64,000 nucleotides of DNA, from NCBI GenBank assembly GCA_039630575.1, contig JBCNUW010000004.1, positions 56,149 to 120,148 on the forward strand. Reading direction: 5' to 3'. Source of the stretch: Candidatus Hydrothermales bacterium. Its GTDB lineage: Bacteria > Hydrothermota > Hydrothermia > Hydrothermales > JAJRUZ01. Below, piece after piece: positions 5,637 to 48,450 of the stretch (within the stretch, counting starts at the first letter, position 1; each line of letters begins with the position of its first letter). A program made the position numbers and the translations under genes. The notes under the pieces were generated by a model that worked only from the letters and a program-made list of their open reading frames with translations, did not search any database and was not told the origin of the DNA.

Positions 5637-5647
5637 GGAATTGAACC
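5637..5647 (-). promoter_or_regulatory. T-loop-like leader motif GGTTCAATTCC, 26 nt upstream of pstS
   Basis: Minus strand reads AAGG-TTCAATT-CCTT; one of 7 copies. Confidence 0.6.
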
Positions 5648-5675
5648 TTTTATTTTTTAATTTTTAATCTCTATG

Positions 5676-5715
5676 AATTAAAAATTCTTTAAGGTAGAGT
5701 TAAAAAATTGTTAAA
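5676..5715 (-). promoter_or_regulatory. Pho-box-like array of four direct repeats with 11-nt period
   Basis: Minus strand TTTAACA/TTTAACT/CTTAAAG/TTTAATT spaced exactly 11 nt, upstream of pstS. Confidence 0.6.
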
Positions 5716-5723
5716 TATAAATT

Positions 5724-9089: not shown

Positions 9090-9705
9090 TTCTTTTTATT
9101 ATCACTCTCCTTCCTTCTATTTTTAATCGTCCTTCGGCATAGAGTTTAATAGCCTCAGAGTAAATTTTATGCTCTTCCTTGAGTATTCTTTCAGCAAGTG
9201 ACTCAGGGGTATCATCGTCAAAAACTGGAACACACCTTTGAAGAATTATAGGTCCTCCATCAACAGTTTCATCTACAAAGTGAACAGTACAGCCCGATAC
9301 CTTAACGCCATACTCTACTGCTTGCCTTTGTGCTTCAAGACCTTTAAAGGAAGGTAATAGAGAGGGATGGATATTCATTATTCTGTTTCTAAACTCTCTT
9401 AAAAGGGCTCCTTTTAAAATTCTCATAAATCCAGCAAGTACAACAAGTTCAACACTTTCTTCCTTTAAAACTCTTGCATATTCTTCCTCCCTTTCTGGTT
9501 CTAAAGTATGTTTTCTTTTACCAGGGTCAAGATACAAAGCTTTGACTCCATACTTTTCTGCTATTTTAAGTACTGGTGCATTAATATTATCAGATATCAC
9601 AATTTTCATTTCGCAGGGAAGTAAACCCTCTTTTATATTCTTTAAAATTGCCTCTACATTTGAGCCCCTTCCGGAGGCAAGAGCTCCTATTTTTAAGGTC
9701 TTCAT
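9082..9705 (-). CDS. purN: Phosphoribosylglycinamide formyltransferase
   Basis: SGRGSN, LAGFMRIL, NIHPSLLP, SGCTVHFVD. Confidence 0.97.
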   Translation of the reverse strand: MKTLKIGALASGRGSNVEAILKNIKEGLLPCEMKIVISDNINAPVLKIAEKYGVKALYLDPGKRKHTLEPEREEEYARVLKEESVELVVLAGFMRILKGALLREFRNRIMNIHPSLLPSFKGLEAQRQAVEYGVKVSGCTVHFVDETVDGGPIILQRCVPVFDDDTPESLAERILKEEHKIYSEAIKLYAEGRLKIEGRRVIIKRNE

Positions 9706-10652
9706 TTTAATTCAAAGAGAACTCCTAAATCAGGCTCTGTATAAATGAAAGCTAAATTTTTTAGGACTCGAACAATAGCCAAATAAGGTAAATCACTTAT
9801 TTCCTTAGACTTTTTATACTTTGGAAGCCTTAAATCAAAATCACTTTCCTTTAAAAAGTCCGCATCAAGATGCTGAATACAAAAACTTTTAAATAAATTA
9901 GGTACTTCTTCTTTGTTATTATTAATATAATCAAGTGCTAAATCCCATACTTCCCTAAATCTCTCCATTGCCTTTCTGTTGTAAGCTAAGGTAACCTTAG
10001 AGCATAAAACACTTCCGATTACAAAATTTTCTCCAAAAAAATCTTTAAATACGTCCTCTATTAAAATATTTGCTTTGTTTTTAACAAAATATTCTTTAAT
10101 AGGGTAATATATGAGCACAGCACCCTCACTCACTTGAGGCATAACTGTTGTGTATTCAAGAAAATTATTTAAGTTAAAGGCATAATTCTCAACAAGTTTT
10201 CTACCGACCACTCTTCCTTCCATCCTTTGAGAAGGTGCGTAAAATGGAAAATTTTTTATATCGTCTATCTTTTTTAACTTTCCGAAACCAAAAATTGAAG
10301 CATAAGAGAAATCCTCATCAACAGTAACATCGGCAATTATTCTATAATTATCAATTTCTTCCCTTTCTCTTATGAATAAATCAACAGAGGGAAAACCAAC
10401 AACTATATCAACTTTTCCCCTTTTTAAATTATCAAGAAGCTCATAAGAGTAAGATTTAATTACTTCTGGTTCTAACTTAAGTTTTTCAAAAATTTTCTTC
10501 TCAAGCGCAACAAAAAGTGGAAAACTTGCAACCGATGGGAAATAGGCAATCTTTACCTTAACTGTTTTGCCTCTTTGTATCAAAGGGTATTGAATTATAT
10601 AAACAAGAACAAGAAACAATATAAAATTTAAAAGGTAAAATATTTTTTTCAT
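9702..10652 (-). CDS. ABC-type substrate-binding protein (SsuA/NMT1-like), N-terminally membrane-anchored
   Basis: N-terminal TM; VKIAYFP...FPLFVALEKKIF and LKRGKVD resemble SsuA/TauA-type SBPs. Confidence 0.6.
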   Translation of the reverse strand: MKKIFYLLNFILFLVLVYIIQYPLIQRGKTVKVKIAYFPSVASFPLFVALEKKIFEKLKLEPEVIKSYSYELLDNLKRGKVDIVVGFPSVDLFIREREEIDNYRIIADVTVDEDFSYASIFGFGKLKKIDDIKNFPFYAPSQRMEGRVVGRKLVENYAFNLNNFLEYTTVMPQVSEGAVLIYYPIKEYFVKNKANILIEDVFKDFFGENFVIGSVLCSKVTLAYNRKAMERFREVWDLALDYINNNKEEVPNLFKSFCIQHLDADFLKESDFDLRLPKYKKSKEISDLPYLAIVRVLKNLAFIYTEPDLGVLFELK

Positions 10653-10670
10653 TTTCTTTTAATTTTTAAA

Positions 10671-10681
10671 GGCTTTGAACC
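10671..10681 (-). promoter_or_regulatory. T-loop-like leader motif GGTTCAAAGCC, 18 nt upstream of the SBP-purN-dnaE operon
   Basis: AAGGG-TTCAAAG-CCTTT, just downstream of a TAAAAT -10 (10690-10695). Confidence 0.55.
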
Positions 10682-10747
10682 CTTTTATGATTTTAAATCA
10701 ATTTGAAGTTTATTATCAAATCCTTTATAATTTAAACTTTATAAATA

Positions 10748-11437: not shown

Positions 11438-11682
11438 AAGAAGATTTACTCGATCAAGCTAAACTTTTGATTCTTTCACAAAATTATAGAAAAGCTAAGG
11501 AAATTCTTGAAAAACTTTATAAGAATAATCCATCTGACACCGAGATAATGTATCACCTTGCTCTTGTTAAGGAAATTCTCTATGAAAGGGAAGAAGCAAT
11601 AATTCTTTACAAAAAAATATTAGAAGTAATTCCTGATCATAAAGAAGCAAAAGAAAGACTTCAAAAGATCATGGAAGAATAG
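11434..11682 (+). CDS. Small TPR protein
   Basis: Two TPR-like helical repeats (AKEILEKL..NP, AIILYKKILE..PDH). Confidence 0.75.
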   Translation: MKEDLLDQAKLLILSQNYRKAKEILEKLYKNNPSDTEIMYHLALVKEILYEREEAIILYKKILEVIPDHKEAKERLQKIMEE

Positions 11683-14250: not shown

Positions 14251-14276
14251 AGAGCTTAAAATATAAGTATTAAATT

Positions 14277-16129: not shown

Positions 16130-16154
16130 AAAAAAATAATTTAGAAATTATAAT
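16126..16154 (+). promoter_or_regulatory. Sigma70-type promoter of the tRNA(CAT)-folP unit
   Basis: TTGAAA-17 nt-TATAAT, ending 8 nt before the tRNA. Confidence 0.75.
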
Positions 16155-16162
16155 TAAAAATA

Positions 16163-16235
<73 letters not shown>

Positions 16236-16248: not shown

Positions 16249-17091
16249 TTGATCTTTTCCTTTAAAGAAGGTTTTATTAACCTTGATAAACCAAAAATTA
16301 TGGGAATTTTGAATGTGACTCCAGATTCCTTTTTTGATGGTGGAAAATTTTTAGATGTTGATAAAGCTGTGGAATGGGGAAAGTATTTATCAAAGAATGG
16401 TGCTGACATCTTGGATATTGGGGGTGAATCTACAAGGCCATTTTCAGAAGAAGTGCCAATTGAAATTGAACTAAAAAGAGTAATACCTGTTATTGAAAAA
16501 TTAAGAAAAGAAATAGACGTACCAATTTCAATTGATACAAGAAAATCAAAAGTAGCTTTAGAAGCCTTAAAAAAGGGTGCTAACATAGTAAATGATATAT
16601 CAGGACTAAGAGATGATAAAGAAATGGTAGAGGTTGTTAAGAAATTTGATGCAGGTATTGTAATAATGCATATTAGGGGAACACCTAAGGATATGCAAAT
16701 TGATCCCCATTATAAAGACACAGTTAAAGAAATAAAGGAAGAGCTAAAAGAAAAAATAAACTATGCCTTAGAGAAAGGTATTAAAAGAGAAAAAATAGTT
16801 ATTGATCCTGGAATAGGTTTTGGTAAAAGAGTAGTTGATAATCTTTTAATTTTAAAAAAAATTGAAGAGTTTAAAGAACTTAACTTTCCTATATTAGTTG
16901 GTCATTCAAGAAAATCCTTTATAGGTAAAGTTTTAAACTTAGATAAACCTGAAGATAGGGGAATTCCAACACTTGCTATTTCAGCCTATTTATTTTTAAA
17001 AAATATAAATATTTTAAGAGTTCATGATGTGAAAGAAACAAAGGAAGTTTTCATAATTTTAGATGCCCTTTTAAATCCTGATGGGCATTAA
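16249..17091 (+). CDS. folP: Dihydropteroate synthase
   Basis: MGILNVTPDSFFDGG, DIGGESTRP, DPGIGFGK, SRKSF, RVHDV. Confidence 0.96.
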   Translation: MIFSFKEGFINLDKPKIMGILNVTPDSFFDGGKFLDVDKAVEWGKYLSKNGADILDIGGESTRPFSEEVPIEIELKRVIPVIEKLRKEIDVPISIDTRKSKVALEALKKGANIVNDISGLRDDKEMVEVVKKFDAGIVIMHIRGTPKDMQIDPHYKDTVKEIKEELKEKINYALEKGIKREKIVIDPGIGFGKRVVDNLLILKKIEEFKELNFPILVGHSRKSFIGKVLNLDKPEDRGIPTLAISAYLFLKNINILRVHDVKETKEVFIILDALLNPDGH

Positions 17092-18159
17092 AAGATAAAG
17101 ATAGTTAGAAGTACTTTCACCCCTTAAAATACAGGCACTTTCACTCCCTGTAATCCCTATAAAAACAACGTCTTCATCAATATGTCTTAAGATTTCAAGT
17201 AAATAGTTGCAGTTAAATCCTATTTCTATCCTTTCACCTTCATAGAACCCCTTTAATTTCTCATAGCCTTCTCCTATTTCACCAGAAACAGCTTTTACTG
17301 TAAGTGAGTCAGGCGAAAGTGAAAATTGAATAGGATTGTTTGGTGGTGATGTAAAGATGTGAAGTCTTCTTAAAGTTTCCATCAAATCCTGTTTTGAAAT
17401 TTTTAAATTGTTTGGTACATCAACAGGGATAACTGCTCTATAATCTGGAAACTTATCGTCAACGAGGTTAACTATTTCGTATCCATTGCTGAAATTAAAT
17501 TGAATTTTTGTATCTGAGAAAAGTATCTTTATTTGCTCTTTTTTGTAATTTTTTAAGAAGTCAAAACTTTTTGGGTCAACTAAAAAATTTCCCTCTAATC
17601 CATTATTCTCTATTTCTATATCATAAACTCCAAGTCTATGAGAATCAGAAGACACAATAGAAAGCCTTTTTCCTTTTACATCAAGTAAAATGTTATTTAA
17701 AAACTGTCTTGAATCATTCTTTGCTACACAGAATGAAACTTTTTCCACACCCTCTAAAATAATATCTGATGAGATAGTTATTTCATTTTTTCCTGTAACC
17801 TCCTCAACTAAAGGAAATTCCTCTGCTGGTTGAATAAAAAAACTGTACTGTCCTTGTGAAGTGTAAATTATAAGCTCTCTTTCTTCTTTTTTTTCTATTA
17901 AAATTTTTTCATTCTTAAGCCTTGAAGTTATTTCCTTTAACTCCTTTCCCCTTACACATAATGCTCCTTCTTCCTCAACCTCTACTGATCCCTTAACTTT
18001 TAAAGAAAAGTTCAGGTTTGTTGAAAAAAGACTAAGTTCATCTCCTTTTGCTTCTAATTTAATATTTTCTAGAATTGGTAAAGCTGCTCTAGACGGAACT
18101 GCATGGTATACACTTTCAATCATTTTCAAAAATTCATCCTTTGTTATTCTAAATTTCAT
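17071..18159 (-). CDS. dnaN: DNA polymerase III beta sliding clamp
   Basis: PILENI, SDSHRL, FPDYRAVIP, IGFN, LLMPIR; downstream of dnaA. Confidence 0.96.
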   Translation of the reverse strand: MKFRITKDEFLKMIESVYHAVPSRAALPILENIKLEAKGDELSLFSTNLNFSLKVKGSVEVEEEGALCVRGKELKEITSRLKNEKILIEKKEERELIIYTSQGQYSFFIQPAEEFPLVEEVTGKNEITISSDIILEGVEKVSFCVAKNDSRQFLNNILLDVKGKRLSIVSSDSHRLGVYDIEIENNGLEGNFLVDPKSFDFLKNYKKEQIKILFSDTKIQFNFSNGYEIVNLVDDKFPDYRAVIPVDVPNNLKISKQDLMETLRRLHIFTSPPNNPIQFSLSPDSLTVKAVSGEIGEGYEKLKGFYEGERIEIGFNCNYLLEILRHIDEDVVFIGITGSESACILRGESTSNYLYLLMPIRI

Positions 18160-18178: not shown

Positions 18179-18189
18179 GGATTTGAACC
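18179..18189 (-). promoter_or_regulatory. T-loop-like leader motif GGTTCAAATCC, 19 nt upstream of dnaN
   Basis: AGG-TTCAAAT-CCT; no SD before the ATG. Confidence 0.6.
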
Positions 18190-18194
18190 TCATT

Positions 18195-18323
18195 TTAATA
18201 AAAAATATATAAAATAATTATAATGTTAAAGATGTGGAAATTTAAAACAGCAAGTAATTTAAGTCAAAAGCTTCTTGTGGAAAGTTTGTGGAAAGAGCAT
18301 ATCCTTGTTTATCCACATAAAAT
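18195..18323. other. Probable oriC part downstream of dnaA: AT-rich tract plus DnaA boxes
   Basis: TGTGGAAA boxes starting at 18233, 18276 and 18287; perfect TTATCCACA at 18309-18317; pure A/T tract at about 18195-18224. Confidence 0.75.
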
Positions 18324-19646
18324 TCACATTCTTTTTAACATTTTCTCTATATCAAAAATTTCATTTTTTAATTTCTCATCTTTGTTTAATAAACTCTCAA
18401 CTTTTTCTATTGCATGGAGGACAGTGGTATGGTCCTTCCCAAAAAATCTTGCAATTTCCACTATGGGCATGTTGAACACATTTTTCATAATAAACATACT
18501 TATCTGTCTTGCCTGAACAAGTTCTTTCTTTTGTTTTTTACTCATTATTTCAGTCTTTGGTAAGTTATAATATTCAGAGACAGTCATTAGAACATCTTGA
18601 GGATCATTGGCTAAAGCTTTTGAGAATATATCACTCAAAAACTTATGTGCCAAGGTTAAGTTGATCTTTATGTTTTTTGATGATTGAATTGCATAAAGTT
18701 TAACTATACAGCTTTCGAGTAGCCTAACATTTTTTTTAACATTCTTTGCAATCAACTCAAGAACATCATCTGAAACTTCTAAACCCCTCTCTTGTGCCTT
18801 TAATTTTAAAATAGCTAGCCTTGTTTCATATTCGGGTGGTTTTATGTCAGTTACAAGACCCCATGAGAACCTGTCTACCAATCTTTCAGCAATGTTGTCG
18901 AGTTCCCATGGTGCACGGTCTGCTGTAAATACTACTTGTTTTTTTTCATTATAAAAGGAATTAAAGATGTGAAATAGAGCTTCCTGAGAAAAATCAGCTC
19001 CAGCCAAAAAATGGATATCGTCAATTAATAGAATTTCAAAGGTTCTAATCTTATTTCTAAATTCATTCATTTTTCTTCTTTGAATAGCATCTACAATTTT
19101 AGAAATAAGGTCTTCAGATGTAATTAATAAAATTTTTGCATTTCTCTTTCTTTTTAAAACATCGTTTCCAATGGCATGGAGTAAATGAGTTTTACCAAGT
19201 CCTACCCCCCCATATATAAAAAAGGGATTATACTCACTACCTGGAGCATGGGCAACAGCTCTTGCTGCTGTATAAGCCATTTCATTATTTTTACCAGTTA
19301 CAAAATTTTCAAAAGTATACTTTGAATTTAAACCATACCCTGAAACTTCATTACTTAATTCCTTTACCTCCATTACAGTATCTTTTTCCTCATCTTTTTT
19401 TTCATCTTTCTTTACTTCATATACAAGTTTAACCATAGGATAGCCAAGCTCCATAAGTACTCTTTTTAGCTTCACATCAAATACCTTCTGCATTATACTT
19501 AACACATAACTATTGTCACAGATTATTCTCATCACATGATCAGGCTCAAGATCTCCTGCCTTTACCTTTTCAAAAAATTTATACTCATTATCAGATAATT
19601 CTGTTTTTAACTTTTCCTTCATAAGATCCCATAATTTCATCCTCAT
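18324..19646 (-). CDS. dnaA: Chromosomal replication initiator DnaA (start moved to the ATG at 19646, behind AGGAGG)
   Basis: YTFENFV, YNPFFIYGGVGLGKTHL, DDIHFL, DHTTVLHA. Confidence 0.97.
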   Translation of the reverse strand: MRMKLWDLMKEKLKTELSDNEYKFFEKVKAGDLEPDHVMRIICDNSYVLSIMQKVFDVKLKRVLMELGYPMVKLVYEVKKDEKKDEEKDTVMEVKELSNEVSGYGLNSKYTFENFVTGKNNEMAYTAARAVAHAPGSEYNPFFIYGGVGLGKTHLLHAIGNDVLKRKRNAKILLITSEDLISKIVDAIQRRKMNEFRNKIRTFEILLIDDIHFLAGADFSQEALFHIFNSFYNEKKQVVFTADRAPWELDNIAERLVDRFSWGLVTDIKPPEYETRLAILKLKAQERGLEVSDDVLELIAKNVKKNVRLLESCIVKLYAIQSSKNIKINLTLAHKFLSDIFSKALANDPQDVLMTVSEYYNLPKTEIMSKKQKKELVQARQISMFIMKNVFNMPIVEIARFFGKDHTTVLHAIEKVESLLNKDEKLKNEIFDIEKMLKRM

Positions 19647-19669
19647 TTTAATTCCCTCCTTGGTATTTA

Positions 19670-19760
19670 ATTTTTCCACAAAGATTTCCACAAATTTTTT
19701 TATAAAAATTTGTCTCTATATGAGAAAAATACTTAAATTTGTGAAAAAATTTCCACAGGC
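19670..19760. other. DnaA-box cluster upstream of dnaA
   Basis: TTTTCCACA (about 19671), ATTTCCACA (about 19684 and 19749), TGTGAAAAA (about 19740). Confidence 0.7.
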
Positions 19761-22982: not shown

Positions 22983-24224
22983 TTAACCCTCGAACTTTTT
23001 GAATAAAAGAGAGCAATTATGTCCTCCAAAACCAAAAGAATTTGAAAGTGCGTATCTTATCTTTACTTCTCTTGCTCCATCTTTTACATAGTCAAGGTCA
23101 CACTCAGGATCAGGATATTCAAGGTTTATTGTAGGGTGAACTTTTTGATGATATATAGCAAGAACGGTAACTCCAGCTTCTAAGGCTCCTGCTCCTCCAA
23201 GTAAGTGTCCCACCATACTTTTTGTTGAATTTACAGGTATCTTATAGGCTCTCTCCCCCAGAAGTCTCTTTATTGCTAAAGTTTCAGCTACATCCCCTCT
23301 GGGTGTTGCTGTTCCATGGGAATTTATATAGTCTATTTCTTTCGGATCCAAAGAAGCACTATCACAGGCCATTTTCATTGACCTGTAAGCTCCATCTCCA
23401 TCAACACAAGGAGCAGTTATGTGGTATGCATCAGCAGTTGCTCCATATCCGACGAGTTCAGCATAAATCCTTGCTCCTCTTTTCATAGCACTTTCTTTTT
23501 CTTCGAGTATAAGTACAGCACATCCTTCACCCATAACAAATCCGTCTCTTAACTTATCAAAAGGTCTTGAAGCCTTTTCCGGCTCATCGTTTCTTGTTGA
23601 TAATGCTTTCATGTTACCAAAACCCGCAAGTGCAATCGGAGTTAAAGGTGCTTCTGAACCTCCAACTACTATAGCCTTAGCATGTCCGTTTTTAATAAGT
23701 AGCATAGCTTCACCAATAGCATGGGCACTAGAAGCACAGGCAGAAACAACTGAAAAATTAGGACCTTTAAATCCATATTTAATCGAAATAACACCAGATG
23801 CTATATCTGGTATCATCATAGGTACAAGAAAGGGAGACACCCATTTAACACCCTTCTCATACATTTTTCTAATCTCTTCCTCTAATGTAATTATTCCACC
23901 TATTCCAGATGAGATTATGACTCCCACATCTTCCCCTTTGTAAGGAATACCGTTAGCCCATCCTGCATCCTGTAAGGCTTCCTCAGTCACATAAAGAGAG
24001 TATACCGTAAAAAGATCCTGTTTTTTTATCTCCTTACTAGATAATCTTTCTTCTGGATTAAAATTTTTTATTTCAGCTGCAATTTTTGATGGTAAATTTG
24101 AAGTATCAAATCTTTCTATCCTCGAGACCCCACTTTTACCCTTCAATAAATTCTCAAAATTTTCATCTTTATTTTTACCCAGTGATGTAAGTATTCCAAT
24201 TCCAGTTACAACTACTTCCTTCAT
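22983..24224 (-). CDS. fabF: Beta-ketoacyl-ACP synthase II
   Basis: [30 protein letters not shown]. Confidence 0.96.
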
Positions 24225-24457
24225 GTTTTTAGTTTATTTTGAATATACTCAACTGCATCTTTTACTGTTCTGATTTTTTCAGCATCTTCATCAGGAACTT
24301 CAATTCCAAATTTTTCCTCTATCTTCATAACAAGCTCAACTACATCTAAAGAGTCAGCACCTAAATCCTCTTGAAATCTAGCTTCCATTGTAACTTGTTC
24401 TGGAGTTACATTCAATTCTTCTACAATTATGTCTCTCAGAGTTGCAAAAACATCCAT
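24221..24457 (-). CDS. acpP: Acyl carrier protein
   Basis: [14 protein letters not shown] motif; SD AGGAGG. Confidence 0.97.
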
Positions 24458-24480: not shown

Positions 24481-24491
24481 GGAATTGAACC
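24481..24491 (-). promoter_or_regulatory. T-loop-like leader motif GGTTCAATTCC, 23 nt upstream of acpP
   Basis: TGG-TTCAATT-CCA downstream of a TTGCTT-18 nt-TAAAAT promoter. Confidence 0.6.
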
Positions 24492-24550: not shown

Positions 24551-24634
24551 GCCGGGGTGACGGAACCGGTAGACGTAGGGGACTTAAAATCCCCTGGGGG
24601 AGACCCCGTGCGGGTTCGAGTCCCGCCCCCGGCA
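24551..24634 (+). tRNA. tRNA-Leu(TAA); CCA not encoded
   Basis: GCCGGGG/CCCCGGC acceptor stem, GGGGA-CTTAAAA-TCCCC anticodon arm, long variable arm, GGTTCGAGTCC; promoter TTGAAA(24494)-17 nt-TAAAAT(24517). Confidence 0.95.
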
Positions 24635-24644: not shown

Positions 24645-24911
24645 ATGGCTTCTCGTAAAATTTTCACAATAAGAAATGTCATTGCCGTTATCCTTGCAGG
24701 AGCTCTAGGTGATATTTTAGGTGTTATTCTCAAAAACTTTATACCAAAATCTCCTGCAAGGGATGTAATACTTTACAGTTCAAAGGTTGGTTTAGAAGAA
24801 CTAAAAATTAATCTCATTATAATAGATTTTAAATTTGGATTTATTCTCTCAATTAACATATTATCTTTTGTTCTTATTTTTCTTATGATATATCTTTTAC
24901 AAAAAATTTGA
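24645..24911 (+). CDS. Small membrane protein (DUF4321-like)
   Basis: Two hydrophobic segments; INLIIIDFKFGF..INILS pattern. Confidence 0.65.
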   Translation: MASRKIFTIRNVIAVILAGALGDILGVILKNFIPKSPARDVILYSSKVGLEELKINLIIIDFKFGFILSINILSFVLIFLMIYLLQKI

Positions 24912-26041
24912 GAGATACATCCTTTATATTACTTGGAGCAGGAAAGGGAGAAAGGATCGGAAAACCAAAAATTTTCCTAAGAATTGAAGGAAAACCGCTT
25001 TATCTATATTTAATAGAAAAGCTTGAAAATATTAAGTTTATTGGAGAGACAATTTTGGCTTGTCCACCAAAATTTAAGTCAGAAATTAAAAATGAAATTA
25101 AAAACAGAAAATTTAAGTTTAATGTAAAAATAATTGAGGGTGGAAAGACAAGATGTGAAAGTATGGAAAAAGCAGTTAAAAAGGCTAAGTTCGAATACGT
25201 TTTTATTCATGATCTTGCAAGACCATTTTTCTCTACCTCTTTAATATTAAATATGAAAAAAAAACTTAAAAAAGCTGAAATTGTTGTTCCATATTTTTCA
25301 CCATATGATACTTGTGTTTATGAGGGTGAAAAAATACAAAGAGAGAAAGTAAAGTTAATTCACACACCACAGGCAACAAAAAAGAGTTTAATATTAAAAG
25401 CTCTTAAAAAAACCAAAAGAAGGAATTATTCTGATGAAAGTACTTTACTTAAAGATGTTTTAAATATTAATCCCCTTTATATAGAAGACTCTTTTTTAAA
25501 TTTTAAGATCACATATAACAAGGATCTTTTTGATATAAATTATTTTTTAAATCACTTTTCTTTTAGGATAGGTTTTGGTTTTGATATTCACAGAATTGTA
25601 AAAGGTAAAAAGAGCCTCTTTGTAGGTGGAATAGCTATAAAAAGGGGTATTTACGCGGTTGGGCATTCAGATGGTGACGCCGTTATACACTCTCTATGCG
25701 ACGCCTTACTGGGAATTACTGGAAGGGGAGATATAGGTGATTTTTTTCCAGATACTGAAAATAGATGGAAAGGCAAAAGATCTGTTATTTTTTTAAAAAA
25801 AATTTTTAAAATTTTTAAAGGTGATGGTTTTGAAATTTCAAATATCGATATAACTATCTTACTTGATACACCCAAACTTGGTGAGAAGAAGAGAAAAATA
25901 AAGGAAAAAATAGCTAAAGTTTTGAGAATTAAACCAGAGGTTATAAGTATAAAAGCGAAAACAACTGAGGGATTATTTAAAGATTTTATCTTTGCTTATA
26001 CTATTTTAACAGCAAAATCCTCATGCAAAATCCAAACTTAA
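24908..26041 (+). CDS. ispDF: Bifunctional IspD/IspF (MEP pathway)
   Basis: GAGKGER, HDLARPF and TPQ (IspD); GFDIH, HSDGD and KAKTTEG (IspF). Confidence 0.92.
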   Translation: MRDTSFILLGAGKGERIGKPKIFLRIEGKPLYLYLIEKLENIKFIGETILACPPKFKSEIKNEIKNRKFKFNVKIIEGGKTRCESMEKAVKKAKFEYVFIHDLARPFFSTSLILNMKKKLKKAEIVVPYFSPYDTCVYEGEKIQREKVKLIHTPQATKKSLILKALKKTKRRNYSDESTLLKDVLNINPLYIEDSFLNFKITYNKDLFDINYFLNHFSFRIGFGFDIHRIVKGKKSLFVGGIAIKRGIYAVGHSDGDAVIHSLCDALLGITGRGDIGDFFPDTENRWKGKRSVIFLKKIFKIFKGDGFEISNIDITILLDTPKLGEKKRKIKEKIAKVLRIKPEVISIKAKTTEGLFKDFIFAYTILTAKSSCKIQT

Positions 26042-37966: not shown

Positions 37967-37995
37967 AAAGTTATACTGCTACTTTTAAAAAAAGC

Positions 37996-38868
37996 TTAAT
38001 TTCTATTTATATAAAAAATTGAAAAAGCTGATGAAAAAGAGGTATATGCAACAAGTCCTAAGTTAAGAATTAACTTTGATATTATATTTATTGAATTGTG
38101 CTTTTTAAAAAATTTAAAAATAGATTTTCTTAGATAATGTTCAGATTTTAGACCCAAGTATTTCCTTGAGCCTCCATGAAAATGAATAATTTTTATATCT
38201 GGAGCATATAAAACTTTATAACCTCTTTTTCTAATTCTCAAGCATAGATCAATATCCTCAGCAAATAAAAAAAATTCTTCATCAAAGCCTCCTACATCTT
38301 CAAAAGTTTCCCTTTTTATAGCTACAAAGGCACCTAAAACAGCTTCTACTTCACGTGGTTTTGTTTCTTTTTCAAGATCAAGGTAGAGAAATTCTCTCGT
38401 TATTGGATTATTTTTTAAAATGAAAGATCCGATTGATTTCCTTCCGAATAAAAGATATTTAAATCTTGGGTATCTTCTGCAGCTTGGTTGATAAGTTCCA
38501 TCAGGATATTCTAATTTTGATCCAAGAATTCCAAGGTTTTGTTCTCTTTCAAAATACCCTTTTATCTTCTCAAATGTCCCTTGTGGGATAATTACATCAG
38601 CGTTAGAAAAAACAAGTATTTTACCCTTAGAAATTTTTGCCCCATAATTACATCCACCCCCATAACCGAGATTTTTCGTATTTTTAACATATTTAAATTC
38701 AGGAAAAATTTTCTTTGCCTTTTCTATAGAATTGTCAGTGGAGTTGTTATCAATCACTATAACTTCAAACTCTTTTTCTTTGTTAAAAGTATTTAATTTT
38801 ATCGATCTTAAGGTGTAGGTAAGGTAATCTCCACTATTAAAATTAACTATAATTATAGAGAAATTCAC
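37996..38868 (-). CDS. Glycosyltransferase family 2 (WbbL-like)
   Basis: IIVNFN, DNNSTD, NLGYG, GFDEEFFLFAEDIDLC. Confidence 0.9.
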   Translation of the reverse strand: MNFSIIIVNFNSGDYLTYTLRSIKLNTFNKEKEFEVIVIDNNSTDNSIEKAKKIFPEFKYVKNTKNLGYGGGCNYGAKISKGKILVFSNADVIIPQGTFEKIKGYFEREQNLGILGSKLEYPDGTYQPSCRRYPRFKYLLFGRKSIGSFILKNNPITREFLYLDLEKETKPREVEAVLGAFVAIKRETFEDVGGFDEEFFLFAEDIDLCLRIRKRGYKVLYAPDIKIIHFHGGSRKYLGLKSEHYLRKSIFKFFKKHNSINIISKLILNLGLVAYTSFSSAFSIFYINRN

Positions 38869-39239
38869 TTTTCCTCTTTATGCTTTGTATCTTTAATTAG
38901 TTTTTCGTCCATTAAGCATTTACCATTAAATGTTACACCATCCTCTACAATTAGACCCTTACAGTAGACTTCTCCTTCAAATCTTGCATTTTTTTCAAAG
39001 TGAGCCTTTCCATCAACTATCAATTTACCAATAAAAGTTCCACCAACTTTTGCATTTTTAGCCCTTACATCCTGAGCTTTGACTTTTCCGCTTGCTCCTA
39101 TGATTAATATATCCTTTGTTTCAATGTTTCCCTCAAATTCTCCATCAATTCTTACTCCACCTTTTGCCTTTATTTCTCCTTTTAATTGAGTTGATTCACC
39201 TATATGAGTATCCAGCTGTGGATGAGGTTCCTTGTTCAT
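38865..39239 (-). CDS. Bactofilin (polymer-forming cytoskeletal protein)
   Basis: IG....KGEI...GGVRIDG.FEGNI repeats; GVTFNGKC. Confidence 0.92.
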   Translation of the reverse strand: MNKEPHPQLDTHIGESTQLKGEIKAKGGVRIDGEFEGNIETKDILIIGASGKVKAQDVRAKNAKVGGTFIGKLIVDGKAHFEKNARFEGEVYCKGLIVEDGVTFNGKCLMDEKLIKDTKHKEEK

Positions 39240-39252
39240 TTTTTAAAATTTT

Positions 39253-40638
39253 TTAAGGAATTGAACCTAAATTTATCTCTGTAAATTTTGAAAGTTCCTC
39301 TAAAATGATATTTTTTATTTCCTCCATTTTTTCAGGTGTTTTTCCCTCAAATCTAAGAACAAGGACGGGTTGAGTATTAGAGGCTCTCACAAGACCAAAG
39401 CCATCCGTAAAATTTATTCTTACACCATCTATGTCAAGAATTTTAAATTTCTTCGAAAATTTTTTCTTCAGTTTCTCAACAACTTTAAACTTATGTTCGT
39501 CTGGGCATTCAACTCTTATTTCAGGTGTTGAATAATAAAAAGGTATTTCATCAACAAGTTCATGAACCTTTTTCTTAAATGTGTCAACTACTTCTAGGAA
39601 TCTTAGGGAAGCATAAATAGCATCATCAAATCCATAGAATCTATCACTGAAGAAAAGATGCCCTGACATTTCTCCTGCAATTGGTGCACCCTCTTCTTTA
39701 AGTTTAGCCTTTATTAGAGAATGCCCTGTTTTCCACATTATGGGTTCACCTCCAATTGACCTTATGTATTCGTAAACTCCCTGCGAGCATTTTACGTCAA
39801 AAATAATCTTACTTCCTTTTTTTTCTTCTAAAACTTTTTTCGATAAAATTGCAAGTATTTTATCTCCATAAATAATTCTAAACTTGTCATCTATTACTCC
39901 TAGCCTATCCCCGTCGCCATCAAAACCAAATCCGCAGGTAAAGTTTTTTTCTTCCTTCATTAAGCCTTTAAGATCTTCCATATATTTTTCAACAGTTGGA
40001 TCTGGCAAATGATTGGGAAAGTTACCGTTAGGTTCCATATAAATTCCAGAAAACTTTATTTTTAGTTCATTGTACAATCCCTCAATAACAGGTCCACAGG
40101 TACCGTTGCCTGGATCAACTGCAACTTTATAACTTTCAGGATCCCATATCCTAACCCTCTCTTTAACTTCCTTTATATATTCAAATACTAAATCTCCCCT
40201 TATCCATCTTTTTCCGTGACCCTCTACATATTCGCCCCTTTCAATTATTTCTCTAATTTTCTGAATTTCCTTTCCATGGATAGTTTCTTTTCCACACATT
40301 ATTTTAATTCCGTTAAACTCTTTCGGGTTATGACTGCCTGTAATCTGAATTCCACCATCAAGACCAAAATGAAAAACCGAGAAATATAAAATAGGGGTGG
40401 GAACCATTCCAATGTCAATTACATTTACCCCTGACTTTAAAAAAGCATCGAGAATAACATCATGTATCCTTGGGGATGATAACCTTGCATCCCTACCCAA
40501 GGATATGGTTTTCCCACCCCTTTTAATTATGTAGCTTGCTATTGCTTTACCTATATGCCATACACTTTCGTCCTTTAAATCCTCATCAGCTATTCCCCTT
40601 ATGTCGTATTCACGGAATATGTAAGGATTTATGATCAT
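39253..40638 (-). CDS. Phosphomannomutase/phosphoglucomutase
   Basis: FREYDIRG, TGSHNP, DGDGDR, GEMSGH, RASNTQP. Confidence 0.95.
   Translation of the reverse strand: MIINPYIFREYDIRGIADEDLKDESVWHIGKAIASYIIKRGGKTISLGRDARLSSPRIHDVILDAFLKSGVNVIDIGMVPTPILYFSVFHFGLDGGIQITGSHNPKEFNGIKIMCGKETIHGKEIQKIREIIERGEYVEGHGKRWIRGDLVFEYIKEVKERVRIWDPESYKVAVDPGNGTCGPVIEGLYNELKIKFSGIYMEPNGNFPNHLPDPTVEKYMEDLKGLMKEEKNFTCGFGFDGDGDRLGVIDDKFRIIYGDKILAILSKKVLEEKKGSKIIFDVKCSQGVYEYIRSIGGEPIMWKTGHSLIKAKLKEEGAPIAGEMSGHLFFSDRFYGFDDAIYASLRFLEVVDTFKKKVHELVDEIPFYYSTPEIRVECPDEHKFKVVEKLKKKFSKKFKILDIDGVRINFTDGFGLVRASNTQPVLVLRFEGKTPEKMEEIKNIILEELSKFTEINLGSIP
39257..39267 (-). promoter_or_regulatory. T-loop-like motif GGTTCAATTCC, 17 nt upstream of the bactofilin gene and inside the last codons of PMM/PGM
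   Basis: AGG-TTCAATT-CCT; encodes the terminal GSIP of the upstream protein. Confidence 0.6.
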
Positions 40639-43472: not shown

Positions 43473-43484
43473 TTTTACCTCCTT

Positions 43485-45137
43485 TTATTTTAAAATTATA
43501 ACTTTTTCTCTTAAAGGTTTATTCTCTATTTTACCCTTTATAAGGTAAATCCCTGAGGGAAGTTTGTGTATGTATTCTTGTCCTTCTTTAAAATCCTCTT
43601 TTTTAATAATCTTAATTCTCCTCCCTTCTTTACTGTAAATGCCTAAGGAGATGTCTTTGTAGTTTTTACCAATAAACTTAATTTTTAGATCCTTTGAAAG
43701 TGAGTTAATTTTATGATCTTTTAATTTTTCAAAATTATCTTCCAAAATATCTGTTCCGTAACCTATCCTCACATAATCAATGACGATGTTTGAAACACCA
43801 TCATCTGAGATTCCCTGCCACTTTATGTAAACAGTTTGATTGGAGTAAGCTGAAAGGGCTAAGGCAAATGTTCTTTCAAAATTTCCGAACATCTTATCGA
43901 TTAAACTCCAAGTTATCCTATCTGTTGAAGCAAAAATTTTTAGAGTATCGTTATTGTTTGTTGTTCCCTTGTTCCATGCCCAGAAAAACAGTCTAGGTGT
44001 TCCATAAACAGGATTAAGTTTTACACCTGGGCTTATCAACTCTCCCTTAAGTCCACTGTATGTGTTAAATGATGGGAAGCTTGCATACCTTGTACCATGA
44101 AAGGCATTTGAGGGCTCAACGATATTGTCACCATAATAAGGTCCCCATCTCCAAGAAACCTGGCCAGATTGTGACCATAAAAAGGGAGGAAAGGCATTTT
44201 CAAAACTTTCAGATAAAGATTCAGGAGGTGCAAAAGCATAAAATTGTGAAGTTAAAGAGTTGTCTTGTGGATATTGATCTTGTGTAAACACCAAAGTAGC
44301 TCTTGTTTTATACCAACCTATATAAGTTGGATTAAAACCTTTATCAAAATTTAAAGTGTCACTTCCTCCAGATGCAAGAAAATTATTAAGAAGAGTATCA
44401 GAGTAAATGCGAGTTGTAAACAGTGAGTCGTATATATCAAATATGGCATTATAGGTTGCACTTTGTAGACCAGTATTCCGAACCCAAACTTTTGGGTAAT
44501 GGGTCATATCCCTATCAACAGTTCCTGTTGGATATAATATTTCTTCTACTTTCACATTGTATTGAAGTAAAAGACGACCCATAACAGTAACGTTATCTAC
44601 TCCTACTGCCCAGTTCCATCTAGCAACAGATTCAACATACTGGAACATAATTTTTACAGAATCTTTTGGTAAGTATGAGGAAAGATCTATAGTATCAACA
44701 CCATTTGCATCACCTGGTAAATTTGCAACTTGAATCCAAGATCCCCAGGATCCACCAGAGAAGAATCGAACCTTTACATAATAGAATTCTTGCCCAGGAC
44801 TATACATATTAAATCCCCAAGAAAATATGAGTATTAGCCTGTCCATCTGGTATACGAAAAGTGAAGGAGTAATAAGTTGTTCATCCGTTATAGGAGCACC
44901 AGATCCTGCATCATCGTCTGTATAATATGCATATCTTGTACCATAATTTGGCGGAGGGTAACTACCTAAATCTGTTGAAGTTCCAACAGTCCACGTAAAA
45001 CCATCTCCATTTCCGTTATAAACACTCCAACCCGATGGTATTACCCCTGCCTCAAAATTTTCATTAAGCAGGGTAACCCATTGGGCTTTTAAGGGAATCG
45101 ACATCATAAAGAGAAAAGATAAGATTTTAAACCTCAT
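43485..45137 (-). CDS. Secreted adhesin-like protein (cleaved-adhesin/MAM-like and Ig-like domains) with T9SS-type CTD; start moved to the ATG at 45137
   Basis: Signal peptide MRFKILSFL...LKA; ENFE..IPSGW repeats; LITP; IDYV; C-terminal YSKEGRR...LPSGIYLI. Confidence 0.8.
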   Translation of the reverse strand: MRFKILSFLFMMSIPLKAQWVTLLNENFEAGVIPSGWSVYNGNGDGFTWTVGTSTDLGSYPPPNYGTRYAYYTDDDAGSGAPITDEQLITPSLFVYQMDRLILIFSWGFNMYSPGQEFYYVKVRFFSGGSWGSWIQVANLPGDANGVDTIDLSSYLPKDSVKIMFQYVESVARWNWAVGVDNVTVMGRLLLQYNVKVEEILYPTGTVDRDMTHYPKVWVRNTGLQSATYNAIFDIYDSLFTTRIYSDTLLNNFLASGGSDTLNFDKGFNPTYIGWYKTRATLVFTQDQYPQDNSLTSQFYAFAPPESLSESFENAFPPFLWSQSGQVSWRWGPYYGDNIVEPSNAFHGTRYASFPSFNTYSGLKGELISPGVKLNPVYGTPRLFFWAWNKGTTNNNDTLKIFASTDRITWSLIDKMFGNFERTFALALSAYSNQTVYIKWQGISDDGVSNIVIDYVRIGYGTDILEDNFEKLKDHKINSLSKDLKIKFIGKNYKDISLGIYSKEGRRIKIIKKEDFKEGQEYIHKLPSGIYLIKGKIENKPLREKVIILK

Positions 45138-45155
45138 AATTTTAAATATAAATAT

Positions 45156-45166
45156 GGAATTGAACC
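45156..45166 (-). promoter_or_regulatory. T-loop-like leader motif GGTTCAATTCC, 18 nt upstream of the adhesin gene
   Basis: Follows TATAAT (45178-45183); no SD. Confidence 0.6.
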
Positions 45167-45190
45167 TTAAACTGGAAATTATAATAAAAA

Positions 45191-47128
45191 ATGAAAAAAA
45201 TATCAAGTATAAATTATAGTTTTTATTTCTTTACTTTTTTAATAATAATTTTTTTGAGAAACTTTTTGGAGAGTTTTCTTGAGGAGCCACATTTTTTATT
45301 TTTCTCAGAAGATTTCTATACTTCTTCTATTATAAACATTCACTTTTTTTTCTTTTATTTTAGCCTTTTGCTTATTTTTCTTTACCTTATTCTTTTTATA
45401 ACTAAAATAAAAAAGGAGGAAGTTTTAAAAGTTCTTATTAATTCTTTTGCCGTTGTACTGATTGCCCCAATTTTTGATTTTTTTGTCTCTGGTTTTAAAG
45501 GATATGATCTTTCCTATCCACTTGATCCTTCTGTTTCTTTAAAAGATTATCTTTTAAGTGCAATTAATCCTTTTAAAAAATTTCCCGGCTCTTCTCCAGG
45601 AATGAGGGTTGAAGTTATTTTAGCTTTTTTTATTTTAATTTATTATGTTAAAAAGTTTACAGGGAAAATTTTAAAGGGGCTTCTTTTATATATTTTAATT
45701 TTTCTCTCAATTTTAACTCTTGGATTTTTACCCCTTTTTATAATAAAAATTTATCCAGATTTTTTCAAAGGTGGTATTTTACCAATTGATTCACAAAAGT
45801 ACGGAACAATTTTTGGCTTTATCTCTTTCCTTTTTCTTTTGCCCTTTTTGATCAAAGAACTTAATTTTATAAAAACCTTAAAAGAGGATTTTTCTCTTTT
45901 TTCTATTTTTTTACCATTAATTGGACTTCTAACAGGTTATAAATTTTTTCTAAGGGATTTTGGAACCGTTCATCCCTTTGATTATTTACTCTTTCTTTTT
46001 TTGTTTCTCTTTTCTTTTCTATTTTATCTGTCAAAAAAGATTATAGCTTTTGAGAGAAAGGATTTAAACTTTATGATCGTAATTTTAGCCTTTTACTCAG
46101 CACTTTTCTCCTTTTCACACTTATTTTTATTTTTACTTCTATATCTTTTTTATTTTTTTACTAAAATTTATAAAAAAGAATTTATAAGTTTTTTATTTTT
46201 TATATTCGAAAAAATACTTCTTTTTTTGTTTGGTTATCTTTTCTTCTCAAAAGAAAGCATTTTTTTTCTTATAGATAAAAGGGTTTTTATTTTTCTTTTT
46301 CTCTTTTTTATATTTTATTTTATTTTTAAGTTCAAATTTTTTAAAAAAAATTTTGTTTTTGAAATTTTTTCTTTTGCTATATTTGTTCTTCTTTTGTATT
46401 TCTTTTTAAATTTTTTCTTTAAACTCAAAGTTGAAGATATAGTTTCTTATAGAATAAATTATCTACTTCACCTTGGAAAGATTGAGATGGCAGATACTTT
46501 ATTTAAAAGTTTTGATGTCAATAAAAAAGACTTAGAGCCTCTATTTTTCTATTATACAAAAAGGTTTAGTGACTTTGAAGTTATGTTTGAAAGACTTTTT
46601 TTAAAAAAGGAAATGACAAAATGGGCAGAAGTAGTTTCTGATTGGGAAAGTTATTTTGATTTAGTTGAAAATAAAAAGTTTCTTTTTCCAGGTTTATATT
46701 TTCTCTTTAAATTTTTAAAACAAAGGGATATAAGATTTATTTTTTTGGCTTATAGGTACGGATTTGATTCCTATCCTGTTTATAACTATTTGATTGATTA
46801 TTTTGTTGAAAAAAGTGACTTTAAAAGCGCCTTTTATATCATTGAAAAAGCAATAACTCAAAACTATTCACCATTTTTTGAAATGAAGAAATATTATCTT
46901 TATTTTAAACTTGGTAATTTAAAAGAGGCAGAGAAAGGTCTTTTAAGTCTAAAACAAAGGGGATTTGTAAATGAAATTTTATACAACAATTTAGGAGTTA
47001 TTTACATGAATTTGGGTAAATTTAATGAGGCTTTACTTTGTTTTGAGAAGGCAATTGAGATTAACCCTTTTTATAAAAGCGCCCATGAAAATCTAAAAAT
47101 TCTTAAAAAGATGATTTTAAATAGATAG
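45191..47128 (+). CDS. Polytopic membrane protein with C-terminal TPR repeats
   Basis: About 12 hydrophobic segments; YNNLGVIY...A..CFEKAIEINP. Confidence 0.75.
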   Translation: MKKISSINYSFYFFTFLIIIFLRNFLESFLEEPHFLFFSEDFYTSSIINIHFFFFYFSLLLIFLYLILFITKIKKEEVLKVLINSFAVVLIAPIFDFFVSGFKGYDLSYPLDPSVSLKDYLLSAINPFKKFPGSSPGMRVEVILAFFILIYYVKKFTGKILKGLLLYILIFLSILTLGFLPLFIIKIYPDFFKGGILPIDSQKYGTIFGFISFLFLLPFLIKELNFIKTLKEDFSLFSIFLPLIGLLTGYKFFLRDFGTVHPFDYLLFLFLFLFSFLFYLSKKIIAFERKDLNFMIVILAFYSALFSFSHLFLFLLLYLFYFFTKIYKKEFISFLFFIFEKILLFLFGYLFFSKESIFFLIDKRVFIFLFLFFIFYFIFKFKFFKKNFVFEIFSFAIFVLLLYFFLNFFFKLKVEDIVSYRINYLLHLGKIEMADTLFKSFDVNKKDLEPLFFYYTKRFSDFEVMFERLFLKKEMTKWAEVVSDWESYFDLVENKKFLFPGLYFLFKFLKQRDIRFIFLAYRYGFDSYPVYNYLIDYFVEKSDFKSAFYIIEKAITQNYSPFFEMKKYYLYFKLGNLKEAEKGLLSLKQRGFVNEILYNNLGVIYMNLGKFNEALLCFEKAIEINPFYKSAHENLKILKKMILNR

Positions 47129-47151
47129 AGAAAATATAATTAATTTTAATT

Positions 47152-48450
47152 ATGGCTAAGGTAGCTATTATAGGTAGTGGTGCAAGAGAACATGCTATTT
47201 CATACTCCTTGGTAAGAAAAAAACACGAAACTTTCGTTATCCCAGGAAACAGTGGTATGAAAGAAGGTATGAAAGTCCTTTTAGACTTTAAAATTGATTT
47301 TGGGAAGATAAAAAATTTTCTAAAAGAAGAAAAAATAGATTATGTTATTGTAGGTCCTGAAGAACCCCTTGTAAATGGAATTAAGGATTCCCTTAAGGAT
47401 GTTGCCTTTGTTTATGGTCCCTCAAAAAAAGAATCAATTCTTGAAGGAAGTAAAGCCTATGCAAAGGAATTCATGTCAGAGTATGGCATTAAAACAGCAA
47501 GTTTTGAAATTTTTGATGAACCTAAGAAGGCACGGGAATATGTGGATAAGAAAGGAGTACCTATAGTAGTAAAGGCAAGTGGTCTTGCCTTAGGTAAAGG
47601 AAGTTTTGTTTGCTGGACAAAAATGGAAGCCTATGAAGCAATAAAAAAAATAATGGAAGATAAGATTTTCGGAGAATCTGGTAATGTTTGTGTGATTGAA
47701 GAATTCCTTAAAGGAGTCGAAATTTCCCTTATTGTATCAGTTGCAGGTGATGAATATCTTTCTTTTATAACTTCTCAAGATCATAAACAGGTTTTTGACG
47801 ATGACAAAGGACCAAATACTGGTGGAATGGGTGCCTATGGACCTTGTCCATTTGTAAGTCATTCTTTATTGAAAGATATAGATGAAAAAATCGTTAGAAG
47901 AACAATAAAAGGTATGGTAAAAAGAGGGTTTGAATACCAGGGTTTTTTGTACTTTGGACTTATGCTAAAAGATGATGGTCCCTATGTTCTTGAATATAAT
48001 GTGAGGATGGGAGATCCTGAAGGTCAAGTTCTTTTATATTTGCTTGAAACAGATCTCCTTGAAATAGTTGAACATACCAAAAATTTTAATCTTTTAAAAA
48101 TCTCAAAACTTAAATTTAAAGAAGGATATGCCTGCTATGTTGTTATTGCATCGAAAGGCTATCCAGATAGATATGAAAAGGGTAAATTGATAAGAGGGTA
48201 TGAGAAAATAAAATCTGAAGATATGAAAGTTTTCTTTGCCGGAGTTAAAGAAGTAGATGGGAACCTATATACAGATGGGGGTAGGGTTATGGGTGTTTTA
48301 GGATATGGTAAGACTTTAGAAGAAGCAATTTCAAAAGCCTACGAGGGGGTTAAGTTTATAGAATTTGAAGGTATGCATTATAGGAGGGATATTGGTAAAA
48401 AGGGTTTAATTCTAAAAAGGGGTTCTATTCCCGATCTCAGCAATAAATAA
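47152..48450 (+). CDS. purD: Phosphoribosylamine-glycine ligase
   Basis: GSGAREHA, GPEEPL, QDHK, GPNTGGMG, EYNVRMGDPE, GGRV. Confidence 0.97.
   Translation: MAKVAIIGSGAREHAISYSLVRKKHETFVIPGNSGMKEGMKVLLDFKIDFGKIKNFLKEEKIDYVIVGPEEPLVNGIKDSLKDVAFVYGPSKKESILEGSKAYAKEFMSEYGIKTASFEIFDEPKKAREYVDKKGVPIVVKASGLALGKGSFVCWTKMEAYEAIKKIMEDKIFGESGNVCVIEEFLKGVEISLIVSVAGDEYLSFITSQDHKQVFDDDKGPNTGGMGAYGPCPFVSHSLLKDIDEKIVRRTIKGMVKRGFEYQGFLYFGLMLKDDGPYVLEYNVRMGDPEGQVLLYLLETDLLEIVEHTKNFNLLKISKLKFKEGYACYVVIASKGYPDRYEKGKLIRGYEKIKSEDMKVFFAGVKEVDGNLYTDGGRVMGVLGYGKTLEEAISKAYEGVKFIEFEGMHYRRDIGKKGLILKRGSIPDLSNK
48421..48431 (+). promoter_or_regulatory. T-loop-like motif GGTTCTATTCC, 28 nt upstream of the ferritin gene and inside the purD 3' end
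   Basis: GGG-TTCTATT-CCC; encodes GSIP near the PurD C-terminus. Confidence 0.5.

Follow-up and report, generated by a model that had tools for sequence, protein, structure and literature searches.

A tRNA T-arm-like hairpin before start codons in one family of the Hydrothermales: a candidate signal for translation initiation without Shine-Dalgarno sequences

Leaders that initiate translation independently of a Shine-Dalgarno (SD) sequence are a feature of the Bacteroidota, where they carry a Kozak-like A at -3, and no hairpin element is known in them, although no search aimed at one was made. Eukaryotic mRNA sites of TRUB1/Pus4 and TRMT6/61A are scattered, lie mostly in coding regions and 3' untranslated regions, and have no fixed relation to the start codon. 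For TRUB1/Pus4, stems down to 2-3 bp are reported as substrates (PMC13492117). Further, translation in a purified system is reported to have risen 2- to 6.3-fold when authentic tRNAs, or a riboswitch resembling tRNA, stood in cis in the leader; the authors propose that these elements touch the ribosome directly, possibly at the E site (PMC9142559). Here, we describe a short hairpin that resembles the T-arm of tRNA and stands at a preferred distance before start codons, including those of seven genes or gene groups in a 64,000-nt stretch of DNA (the window) from Candidatus Hydrothermales bacterium (GenBank assembly GCA_039630575.1, contig JBCNUW010000004.1, positions 56,149 to 120,148 of the forward strand). 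We argue that this hairpin may act, as RNA, as a start signal that does not depend on an SD.

The pattern GGTTCNANNCC occurs nine times in the window, and none of 100 dinucleotide shuffles reached that number (mean 1.06, maximum 4). A preliminary description, made from the letters of the window, had put the chance expectation at under one hit; the shuffles put it at about one, close to that estimate. Two of the nine matches are T-arms of tRNA genes and seven are sense-strand copies upstream of ATGs (Table 1), for which the coordinates, strand, loops, outer pairs and distances to the ATG given in that description were all borne out. So was its statement that five of the seven leaders lack an SD: on reading the leaders, AAGGAGG was found only before the pstS-like gene and acpP. 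With one mismatch allowed, the window yielded no convincing extra copy. ARAGORN and the Rfam RF00005 cloverleaf find tRNAs in the window only at 16163-16235 and 24551-24634, and the leader copies are not tRNA genes; likewise, in the Rfam search that had been proposed, only these two tRNAs match at the gathering score, and no yjdF or other tRNA-like family does. The families assigned by Pfam to the downstream genes (PBP_like_2, Formyl_trans_N, DNA_pol3_alpha, DNA_pol3_beta, PP-binding, Bactofilin, Cleaved_Adhesin with Por_Secre_tail, and Ferritin) agree with the gene names proposed earlier, including purN-like and dnaE, except that the 316-aa open reading frame (ORF) heading the purN-dnaE group, which had been called SBP, has no Pfam family.

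The genome assembly that contains the window (G000; 1.89 Mb, 30% GC, 95 contigs), a bin that is 94.7% complete and lacks a 16S gene, has 207 matches, 163 of them outside ARAGORN tRNAs, where 25.8 would be expected under a first-order Markov model; at least two of the 163 resemble tRNA or tmRNA ends. On the motif strand, an ATG opening at least 50 codons follows within 80 nt in 120 of the 163 cases, 81 of them at 17-23 nt, whereas in the opposite orientation only 31 of the 163 have such an ATG-ORF within 80 nt and the distances are flat. At 13-40 nt before an ATG-ORF, the corresponding numbers are 115 of 163 on the motif strand and only 13 of 163 in the opposite orientation. The genome-wide scan suggested in the preliminary description thus gives a strong enrichment of both strand and distance before starts. 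The 115 copies with a start 13-40 nt away were taken as the working set, 45 others were set aside, and three were dropped (near contig ends or N runs). Beyond the 11 bases of the motif, the flanks of the 115 copies are A/T-rich and hold less than 0.4 bit per position, and the element is therefore compact and does not belong to a longer repeat; on account of these flanks, a mobile element or a longer conserved RNA was also rejected. In a profile search of 1460 crudely called genes (first ATG of non-overlapping ORFs of at least 120 codons, ATG only), the motif stands before 133 genes, against 8 in shuffled upstream regions. The seven copies of the window hence belong to a genomic set of about 115-133 copies, corresponding to 7-9% of genes.

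The pair just outside GG/CC, which would be the third pair of a stem, is formed in 78 of the 115 copies, as compared to 56.8±3.8 (maximum 71) in shuffles, with G opposite C 26 times and A opposite T 36 times. Pairing beyond this position is at chance level, the fourth pair being formed in 58 of 115 copies with 56.2 expected. In 400 kb from the family's other genus (G005), 34 of 35 copies, at least three of which are tRNAs, have this third pair, against 20.5±2.0, and in rplL orthologues it is A-T in two genomes and G-C in four. The covariation that had been read from the seven window copies as favouring an RNA hairpin is thereby upheld in two genera. The match to the T-arm, with U54 and A58 kept, likewise extends to the leader copies of the whole genome: in leader position the core is nearly invariant, with variants at about zero for T54, T55 and A58 and slightly above background for C56, and among variants of the core pairs only A1..T11 is enriched in leader position (6/58). 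The leader copies have the sequence features of a T-loop (7-nt loop; U54, U55, C56 and A58; closure by G53-C61) and lack the 5-bp T-stem, three pairs being supported. Nearest-neighbour energies of the stem average -2.1 kcal/mol at 37 C and +1.1 at 65 C, and a stem this weak probably needs the T-loop fold or a partner. We describe the element as a predicted hairpin of 11-13 nt, with the T-arm core G52 G53 U54 U55 C56 N A58 N Y C61 C62 and one covarying pair.

Three kinds of string are enriched in the upstream regions of the genome, namely AGGAGG (172 against 20.9 expected), TATAAT (246 against 59.9) and GGTTCA (71 against 17.9), and each has its own position: GGAGG peaks at -11, TATAAT is sharply placed at -14 to -11, and the motif starts at -28 to -34. 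An exact TATAAT starting at -14 to -11 from the ATG precedes 100 of the 1460 crude genes, which we read as the signature of leaderless mRNAs and as pointing to a large leaderless class. The hairpin has a different setting. Among 41 first genes (no co-directional ORF end within 200 nt upstream), 28 have a -10-like hexamer ending 4-22 nt before the hairpin, with a peak at 11-15 nt, while a control window farther upstream gives 12. In addition, 53 of the 115 copies overlap the stop of a co-directional ORF or follow it within 40 nt, and at these cistron junctions a -10-like box is seen in 19 of 53 cases, against 10 of 53 in the control window. The motif can there be read as a C-terminal Gly-Ser-x-Pro, so that upstream genes end in ..GSNP* or ..GSIP*; rplJ (L10) ends in ..EGSNP* in the four family genomes checked, and in ..KNL* in the sister family (rplJ ends L079-L084). 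The RNA element appears in this way to have reshaped the protein tails of upstream genes. Its placement after -10 boxes, in intercistronic gaps and within the last codons of upstream genes indicates, as far as position can tell, that the hairpin is transcribed. Sequencing runs were also searched with a 10-kb stretch that carries rpsL and tuf, and no RNA run was among those listed.

Strict conservation of the sequence would also suit a site acting in the DNA, be it an operator, a promoter element or a remnant of a tRNA gene, and first genes do keep a loose distance to the -10 box. We nevertheless regard such a site as very unlikely, given that the core is not palindromic and is found in one orientation only, that it lies downstream of -10 boxes and also at cistron junctions lacking them, that the flanking pair covaries, that the geometry is unlike the -35/-10 arrangement of leaderless promoters (a leaderless-type -10 at -14 to -11 precedes 7 of 133 motif genes, against 215 of 1327 others), and that no other part of a tRNA flanks the copies. 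With about half of the copies lying between or inside co-directional genes, the DNA operator retained as a residual option in the preliminary description is, by the same reasoning from sequence, unlikely. Two promoter types were rejected separately: a sigma-70 leaderless promoter element (-10 at -12 to -7, -35 17 nt upstream) gives no positional signal in an ATG-anchored matrix, and the spacing of a sigma-54 promoter does not fit, as judged by eye.

The same positions bear on the stability of the transcripts. If bound by a protein close to where the mRNA begins, or at an end created by upstream cleavage, the hairpin could block 5'-dependent decay of abundant mRNAs. The -10-like boxes of first genes, mostly 11-15 nt upstream, would put the hairpin about 5 nt into the transcript; its 5' flank is A-rich, it coexists with an SD at variable distance, and the marked genes are abundant ones. 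A 3-bp stem alone is too weak for this role, however, and copies within upstream ORFs would be unwound by each translating ribosome. Further, the conserved TATAAT of dnaN lies 20-27 nt upstream, so that the hairpin is not at the 5' end there, and a systematic loss of the SD would be left unexplained. We consider stabilisation a decidedly improbable function.

With regard to the SD, SD-like strings are found before 12 of 93 genes with the motif at its usual distance, 20 of 38 genes with the motif farther away, and 365 of the 1327 other genes. Leaders lacking an SD number 85 and have A/U-rich spacers of 17-23 nt, an A at -3 in 59 of the 85, and an A-rich second codon, while 30 of the 115 leaders have a good SD, with the hairpin 7-23 nt upstream of it and 21-39 nt before the AUG. 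In the family to which the window belongs, a hairpin without SD precedes tuf, dnaN, rplL and efp in six of six genomes and infC in five of five. In the sister family, these genes have an SD of the AAGGAGG type and no hairpin (tuf 4/4, dnaN 3/3 with one masked, rplL 4/4, efp 5/5, infC 5/5). For a wider comparison, all 115 downstream proteins were compared with parts of the genomes G005, from the same family, and G006 and G008, from the sister family. None of the 22 orthologue candidates in G006 has the motif; 18 have an SD-like string, and two an AAGGGG-type, one an AGGTGA and one a leaderless-type start region. The 12 candidates in G008 also lack the motif, 11 being SD-like and one leaderless-type. 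Of 14 candidates in G005, 12 have the motif and six an SD-like string, two of the latter without the motif. The 24 counterparts of the sister-family candidates in the window's own genome include only three with an SD-like string, and the SD rates of the sister orthologues (18/22 and 11/12) are well above the sister genome average of 40%. The hairpin, judging by these leaders, stands where the sister family has strong SDs, and the link to SD-independent starts drawn in the preliminary description is not only upheld but strengthened by this comparison. A gene confined to genus 1, ferritin, has the motif in two genomes and a C56-to-T variant together with an SD in two others.

The marked genes encode EF-Tu, the ribosomal proteins S12, S15, S20, S21, L7/L12, L31, L32 and L35, and also IF3, EF-P, RRF, HPF, CspA, HU, Hsp20, KhpA, DnaN and AcpP, and are largely abundant ones; of 18 proteins submitted, 17 gave the expected family, and the other names were read from N-termini. 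The distribution of the element is narrow. Across 272 genomes of the phylum, the pattern GGTTCWAWYCC-N15-25-ATG has 58-124 matches in each of the six genomes (two genera) of this one family and 0-18 in each of the other 266, in line with the earlier proposal of a lineage-specific signal. The maximum of 18 belongs to a 67%-complete sister-family bin (G010) that also holds a second infC, 80% identical to that of the window's genome and with the motif, and a second 16S (C31, C39 and others); its matches probably come from mixed-in contigs of the hairpin-bearing family. By crude gene calls on the DNA retrieved per genome, SD-like, leaderless-type -10 and motif starts account for 27%, 15% and 6.9% of genes in the window's genome, 35%, 16% and 9.4% in G005, and 40%, 9% and 0.3% in G006. 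When 185,579 species genomes were scanned for the motif with six leader bases, there were at least 117 matches, and among those listed, several leader-type matches occurred only in records titled as WOR-3 metagenome-assembled genomes.

Conservation this strict, in genes many of which are translation components, raises the question of T-loop enzymes. The hairpin could be a docking or modification site for TruB (psi55), TrmFO/TrmA (m5U54) or TrmI (m1A58), through which translation or stability would be adjusted, or the synthesis of the translation machinery tied to the tRNA pool. Indeed, the invariant G53, U54, U55, C56, A58 and C61 fit the GUUCNANNC stem-loop code of eukaryotic TRUB1/Pus4 mRNA sites, and stems of 2-3 bp are reported as substrates there (PMC13492117). 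Both by sequence and by stem, the leader copies fit this code of TruB/Pus4/TRUB1 substrates, in which U55 would be converted to pseudouridine. The window's genome encodes one TruB, one protein of the GCD14/TrmI family, one tRNA_U5-meth_tr and one 444-aa protein of the GIDA family. None of these enzymes is specific to the family, however: TruB is single-copy across the order, yet the sister family lacks such leaders. Nor would modification alone explain the fixed distance to the AUG and the loss of the SD, and bacterial TruB is reported to bind short stem-loops weakly, with a KD above 1 uM (PMC13492117). We find it improbable that modification is the main function.

The reading we favour, and hold with about as much confidence as doubt, is that the hairpin is an RNA-level translation start signal that works independently of the SD. 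A component that grips T-arms or tRNA elbows would hold the T-loop-shaped hairpin at the 5' edge of the ribosome-binding region; candidates for the holder are the ribosome's own tRNA-elbow contacts or a T-arm-binding protein. The held hairpin would keep the initiating ribosome on the unstructured A/U-rich spacer, and the next AUG would be used. Position, covariation, lineage and replacement of the SD together support the signal acting as RNA that had been proposed for the window; that it raises or directs initiation, and what binds it, we infer from these patterns. Base pairing with rRNA does not appear to be the route. Three 16S genes found in family genomes (none in the window's genome) have the 3' tail CACCUCCUUUCU, canonical (GGATCACCTCCTTTCT) and identical in both families, and since the tail is unchanged, the signal would not work via rRNA pairing; the motif is not complementary to it and ends at least 17 nt before the ATG. 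Two candidates concerning the 16S were rejected. Pairings between the hairpin and the 16S are limited to 7-8-nt matches with G-U pairs included; they fall at the 5' end of the 16S or outside the gene, and are at the level of chance. Of the 16S columns, 62 are family-specific; their largest cluster corresponds to an ordinary variable helix, and the likeness of this helix to the motif is not conserved among the three family genomes.

Several points weigh against this reading. The 3-bp stem cannot stand alone at high temperature, and a lone T-arm has no D-loop with which to build the tRNA elbow, the feature that the L1 stalk, RNase P and T-boxes recognise. The hairpin coexists with a good SD in 30 of the 115 leaders at a variable distance, and hence is no simple alternative to it. 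About half of the crude genes have neither an SD, nor a -10 at -12, nor the motif, meaning that SD-less initiation does not need the hairpin. The preferred spacing depends on the genus (17-23 nt in the window's genome, 19-27 nt in G005), no family-specific reader was found, TruB being single-copy in 11 of 11 genomes of the order, and the gene calls are crude.

An arrangement found in this order may throw light on the hairpin. A long ATG-ORF begins 7-16 nt after the 3' end of 17 of the 45 tRNAs in the window's genome; among the tRNAs examined in G008 (31) and G006 (32), 12 and 6, respectively, are followed in this way. The spacers in between are A/U-rich and mostly SD-less. As the tRNA genes encode no CCA and the ORFs lie so close, tRNA maturation would have to sever the mRNA near the AUG. 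In 16 of 20 tRNA-led genes, 20-28 nt separate the T-arm CC from the ATG, which is similar to the 17-23 nt and 19-27 nt of the hairpin in the two genera. These tRNA-led genes may be the evolutionary source of the hairpin. One contig of G005 (C32, L037; about 17360-17440) has a real and a mimic T-arm in tandem before one ORF: a T-arm hairpin stands no more than 30 nt after a tRNA, and the gene starts 23 nt farther on.

Such genes suggest the main rival, in which the hairpin is a pseudo-tRNA that punctuates transcripts: a nuclease or adaptor of the tRNA-processing type would recognise the mimic and cut near it, and the short A/U leader would be translated without an SD from its 5' end, like the leaderless mRNAs of the lineage. 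The evident leaderless class would make such translation plausible, and the 53 copies at cistron junctions are where punctuation would be expected. RNase P and RNase Z need an acceptor-stem-like helix, however, and the absence of pairing past the third pair leaves none. The best RNase Z candidate (TIGR02651) in the window's genome is a short MBL-fold protein of 245 aa (C78; L293:1495-2232). Its score of 130 bits is below the curated cut-off (293), and its match is confined to the N-terminal half of the model (positions 2-148 of 302). In some leaders the SD begins 7-10 nt after the hairpin and would be destroyed by a cut about 11 nt downstream, the 7-nt spread of the spacing is unlike a ruler that makes exact 5'-AUG ends, and the short gaps between tRNAs and genes could simply reflect compact operons. 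On balance, we judge punctuation to be unlikely, though it deserves serious attention. If the hairpin served to mark sites of processing, bacteria would have in it an equivalent of the tRNA punctuation of mitochondria, with only one arm of the tRNA left; both involve a tRNA-type element between cistrons and downstream mRNAs with no need of an SD, but in mitochondria whole tRNAs are cut by RNase P and RNase Z, whereas here there is a bare T-arm without acceptor helix and cleavage is conjectural.

Returning to the start signal, a more far-reaching form of it can be offered tentatively, with rather more doubt than belief: the bare T-arm hairpin would be a self-sufficient ribosome-recruitment signal, read by elbow contacts (e.g., the L1 stalk/E-site side) or by a dedicated T-arm-binding initiation factor. 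Next to SD-led and leaderless starts, bacteria would then have a third type of start signal, which would have arisen in a single family out of genes riding directly behind tRNA genes.

The local context of the window copies is collected in Table 1. Between dnaN and the ORF 18324-19691, at about 18190-18260, there is a DnaA-box-like sequence, TTTCCACA, with TTATCCACA/TTATCCACT in the sister family; a DnaA-box-like site and a TATAAT upstream of dnaN are kept in both families. Additionally, in the tuf leaders of three genomes of genus 1 (G001, G004 and G003; L008, L009 and L007, respectively), the TATAAT that precedes the hairpin is flanked on both sides by the arms of an inverted repeat, TGGGG..CCCCA, and the tuf leader of G005 has a different hairpin, CCCCC..GGGG, after its TATAAT.

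Table 1. Leader hairpins of the window, the two tRNA T-arms used as comparators, and the genes next to them.
Feature	Position	Strand	Outer pair	Downstream gene	Spacer to ATG	Other
Hairpin GGTTCAATTCC	5637..5647	-	A-T	pstS-like PBP gene 4633-5610, ATG at 5610	26 nt (5611-5636, strand -), contains AAGGAGG
Hairpin GGTTCAAAGCC	10671..10681	-	G-T	316-aa ORF 9702-10652, then purN-like and dnaE	18 nt, A/U, no SD
Hairpin GGTTCAAATCC	18179..18189	-	A-T	dnaN 17071-18159	19 nt, no SD
Hairpin GGTTCAATTCC	24481..24491	-	T-A	acpP 24221-24457	23 nt, includes AAGGAGG
Hairpin GGTTCAATTCC	39257..39267	-	A-T	bactofilin gene 38865-39239	17 nt, no SD	overlaps last codons (..GSIP*) of upstream ORF 39253-40638
Hairpin GGTTCAATTCC	45156..45166	-	A/A mismatch	adhesin/T9SS-tail gene 43485-45137	18 nt, no SD	TATAAT upstream, ending 11 nt before the hairpin
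Hairpin GGTTCTATTCC	48421..48431	+	G-C	ferritin gene 48460-48969	28 nt, no SD	within 3' end of upstream ORF 47152-48450 (..RGSIPDLSNK*)
True T-arm of tRNA-Met (16163-16235), comparator	16214..16224	+
True T-arm of tRNA-Leu (24551-24634), comparator	24613..24623	+		ORF 24645-24911, then ispDF 24908-26041	start 21 nt past the T-arm CC	example of a tRNA-led gene

If the favoured reading is true, start codons would be selected in this family by tRNA mimicry instead of 16S rRNA pairing. The origin of the signal would be recent, and the sister genomes, which keep the SD state of the same genes, would provide a natural before-and-after system for the replacement of one signal by another. It would have consequences, too, for gene calling in uncultured lineages and for the design of SD-free expression signals. 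In a literature search that covered few subscription journals, no description of such a leader was found.

In comparison with known systems, the element belongs neither with tRNAs or SDs nor with promoter elements, and its copies in the window match no Rfam family. It shares with the tRNA T-arm the letters at 52-56, 58, 61 and 62, the 7-nt loop and the preference for a pyrimidine at 60, and the pattern recurs in 44 tRNAs of the window's genome; it differs in having a 3-bp rather than a 5-bp stem, in the absence of acceptor, D and anticodon arms, in its location in mRNA leaders, and in position 57, often U here (17/115) and a purine in tRNA. To the SD-independent, A-rich leaders of the Bacteroidota it is linked by A/U-rich spacers, the A at -3 and low SD usage. 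With the eukaryotic mRNA sites of TRUB1/Pus4 and TRMT6/61A it has in common a code made of sequence plus hairpin, with short stems accepted. Like the SD, the hairpin keeps a preferred distance before the start, and it takes the place of the SD in orthologous leaders, but it lacks complementarity to the 16S tail, lies at -18 to -34 instead of -6 to -15, and can coexist with an SD. Finally, the yjdF riboswitch and grafted cis-tRNAs (PMC9142559) also place a tRNA-shaped element upstream of the ribosome-binding region, with a rise in translation and a proposed ribosome contact; those are whole folds with a D-loop/T-loop elbow, found ahead of an SD, at one locus or in synthetic constructs, whereas the T-arm described here is bare, recurs before more than 100 genes and stands without an SD.

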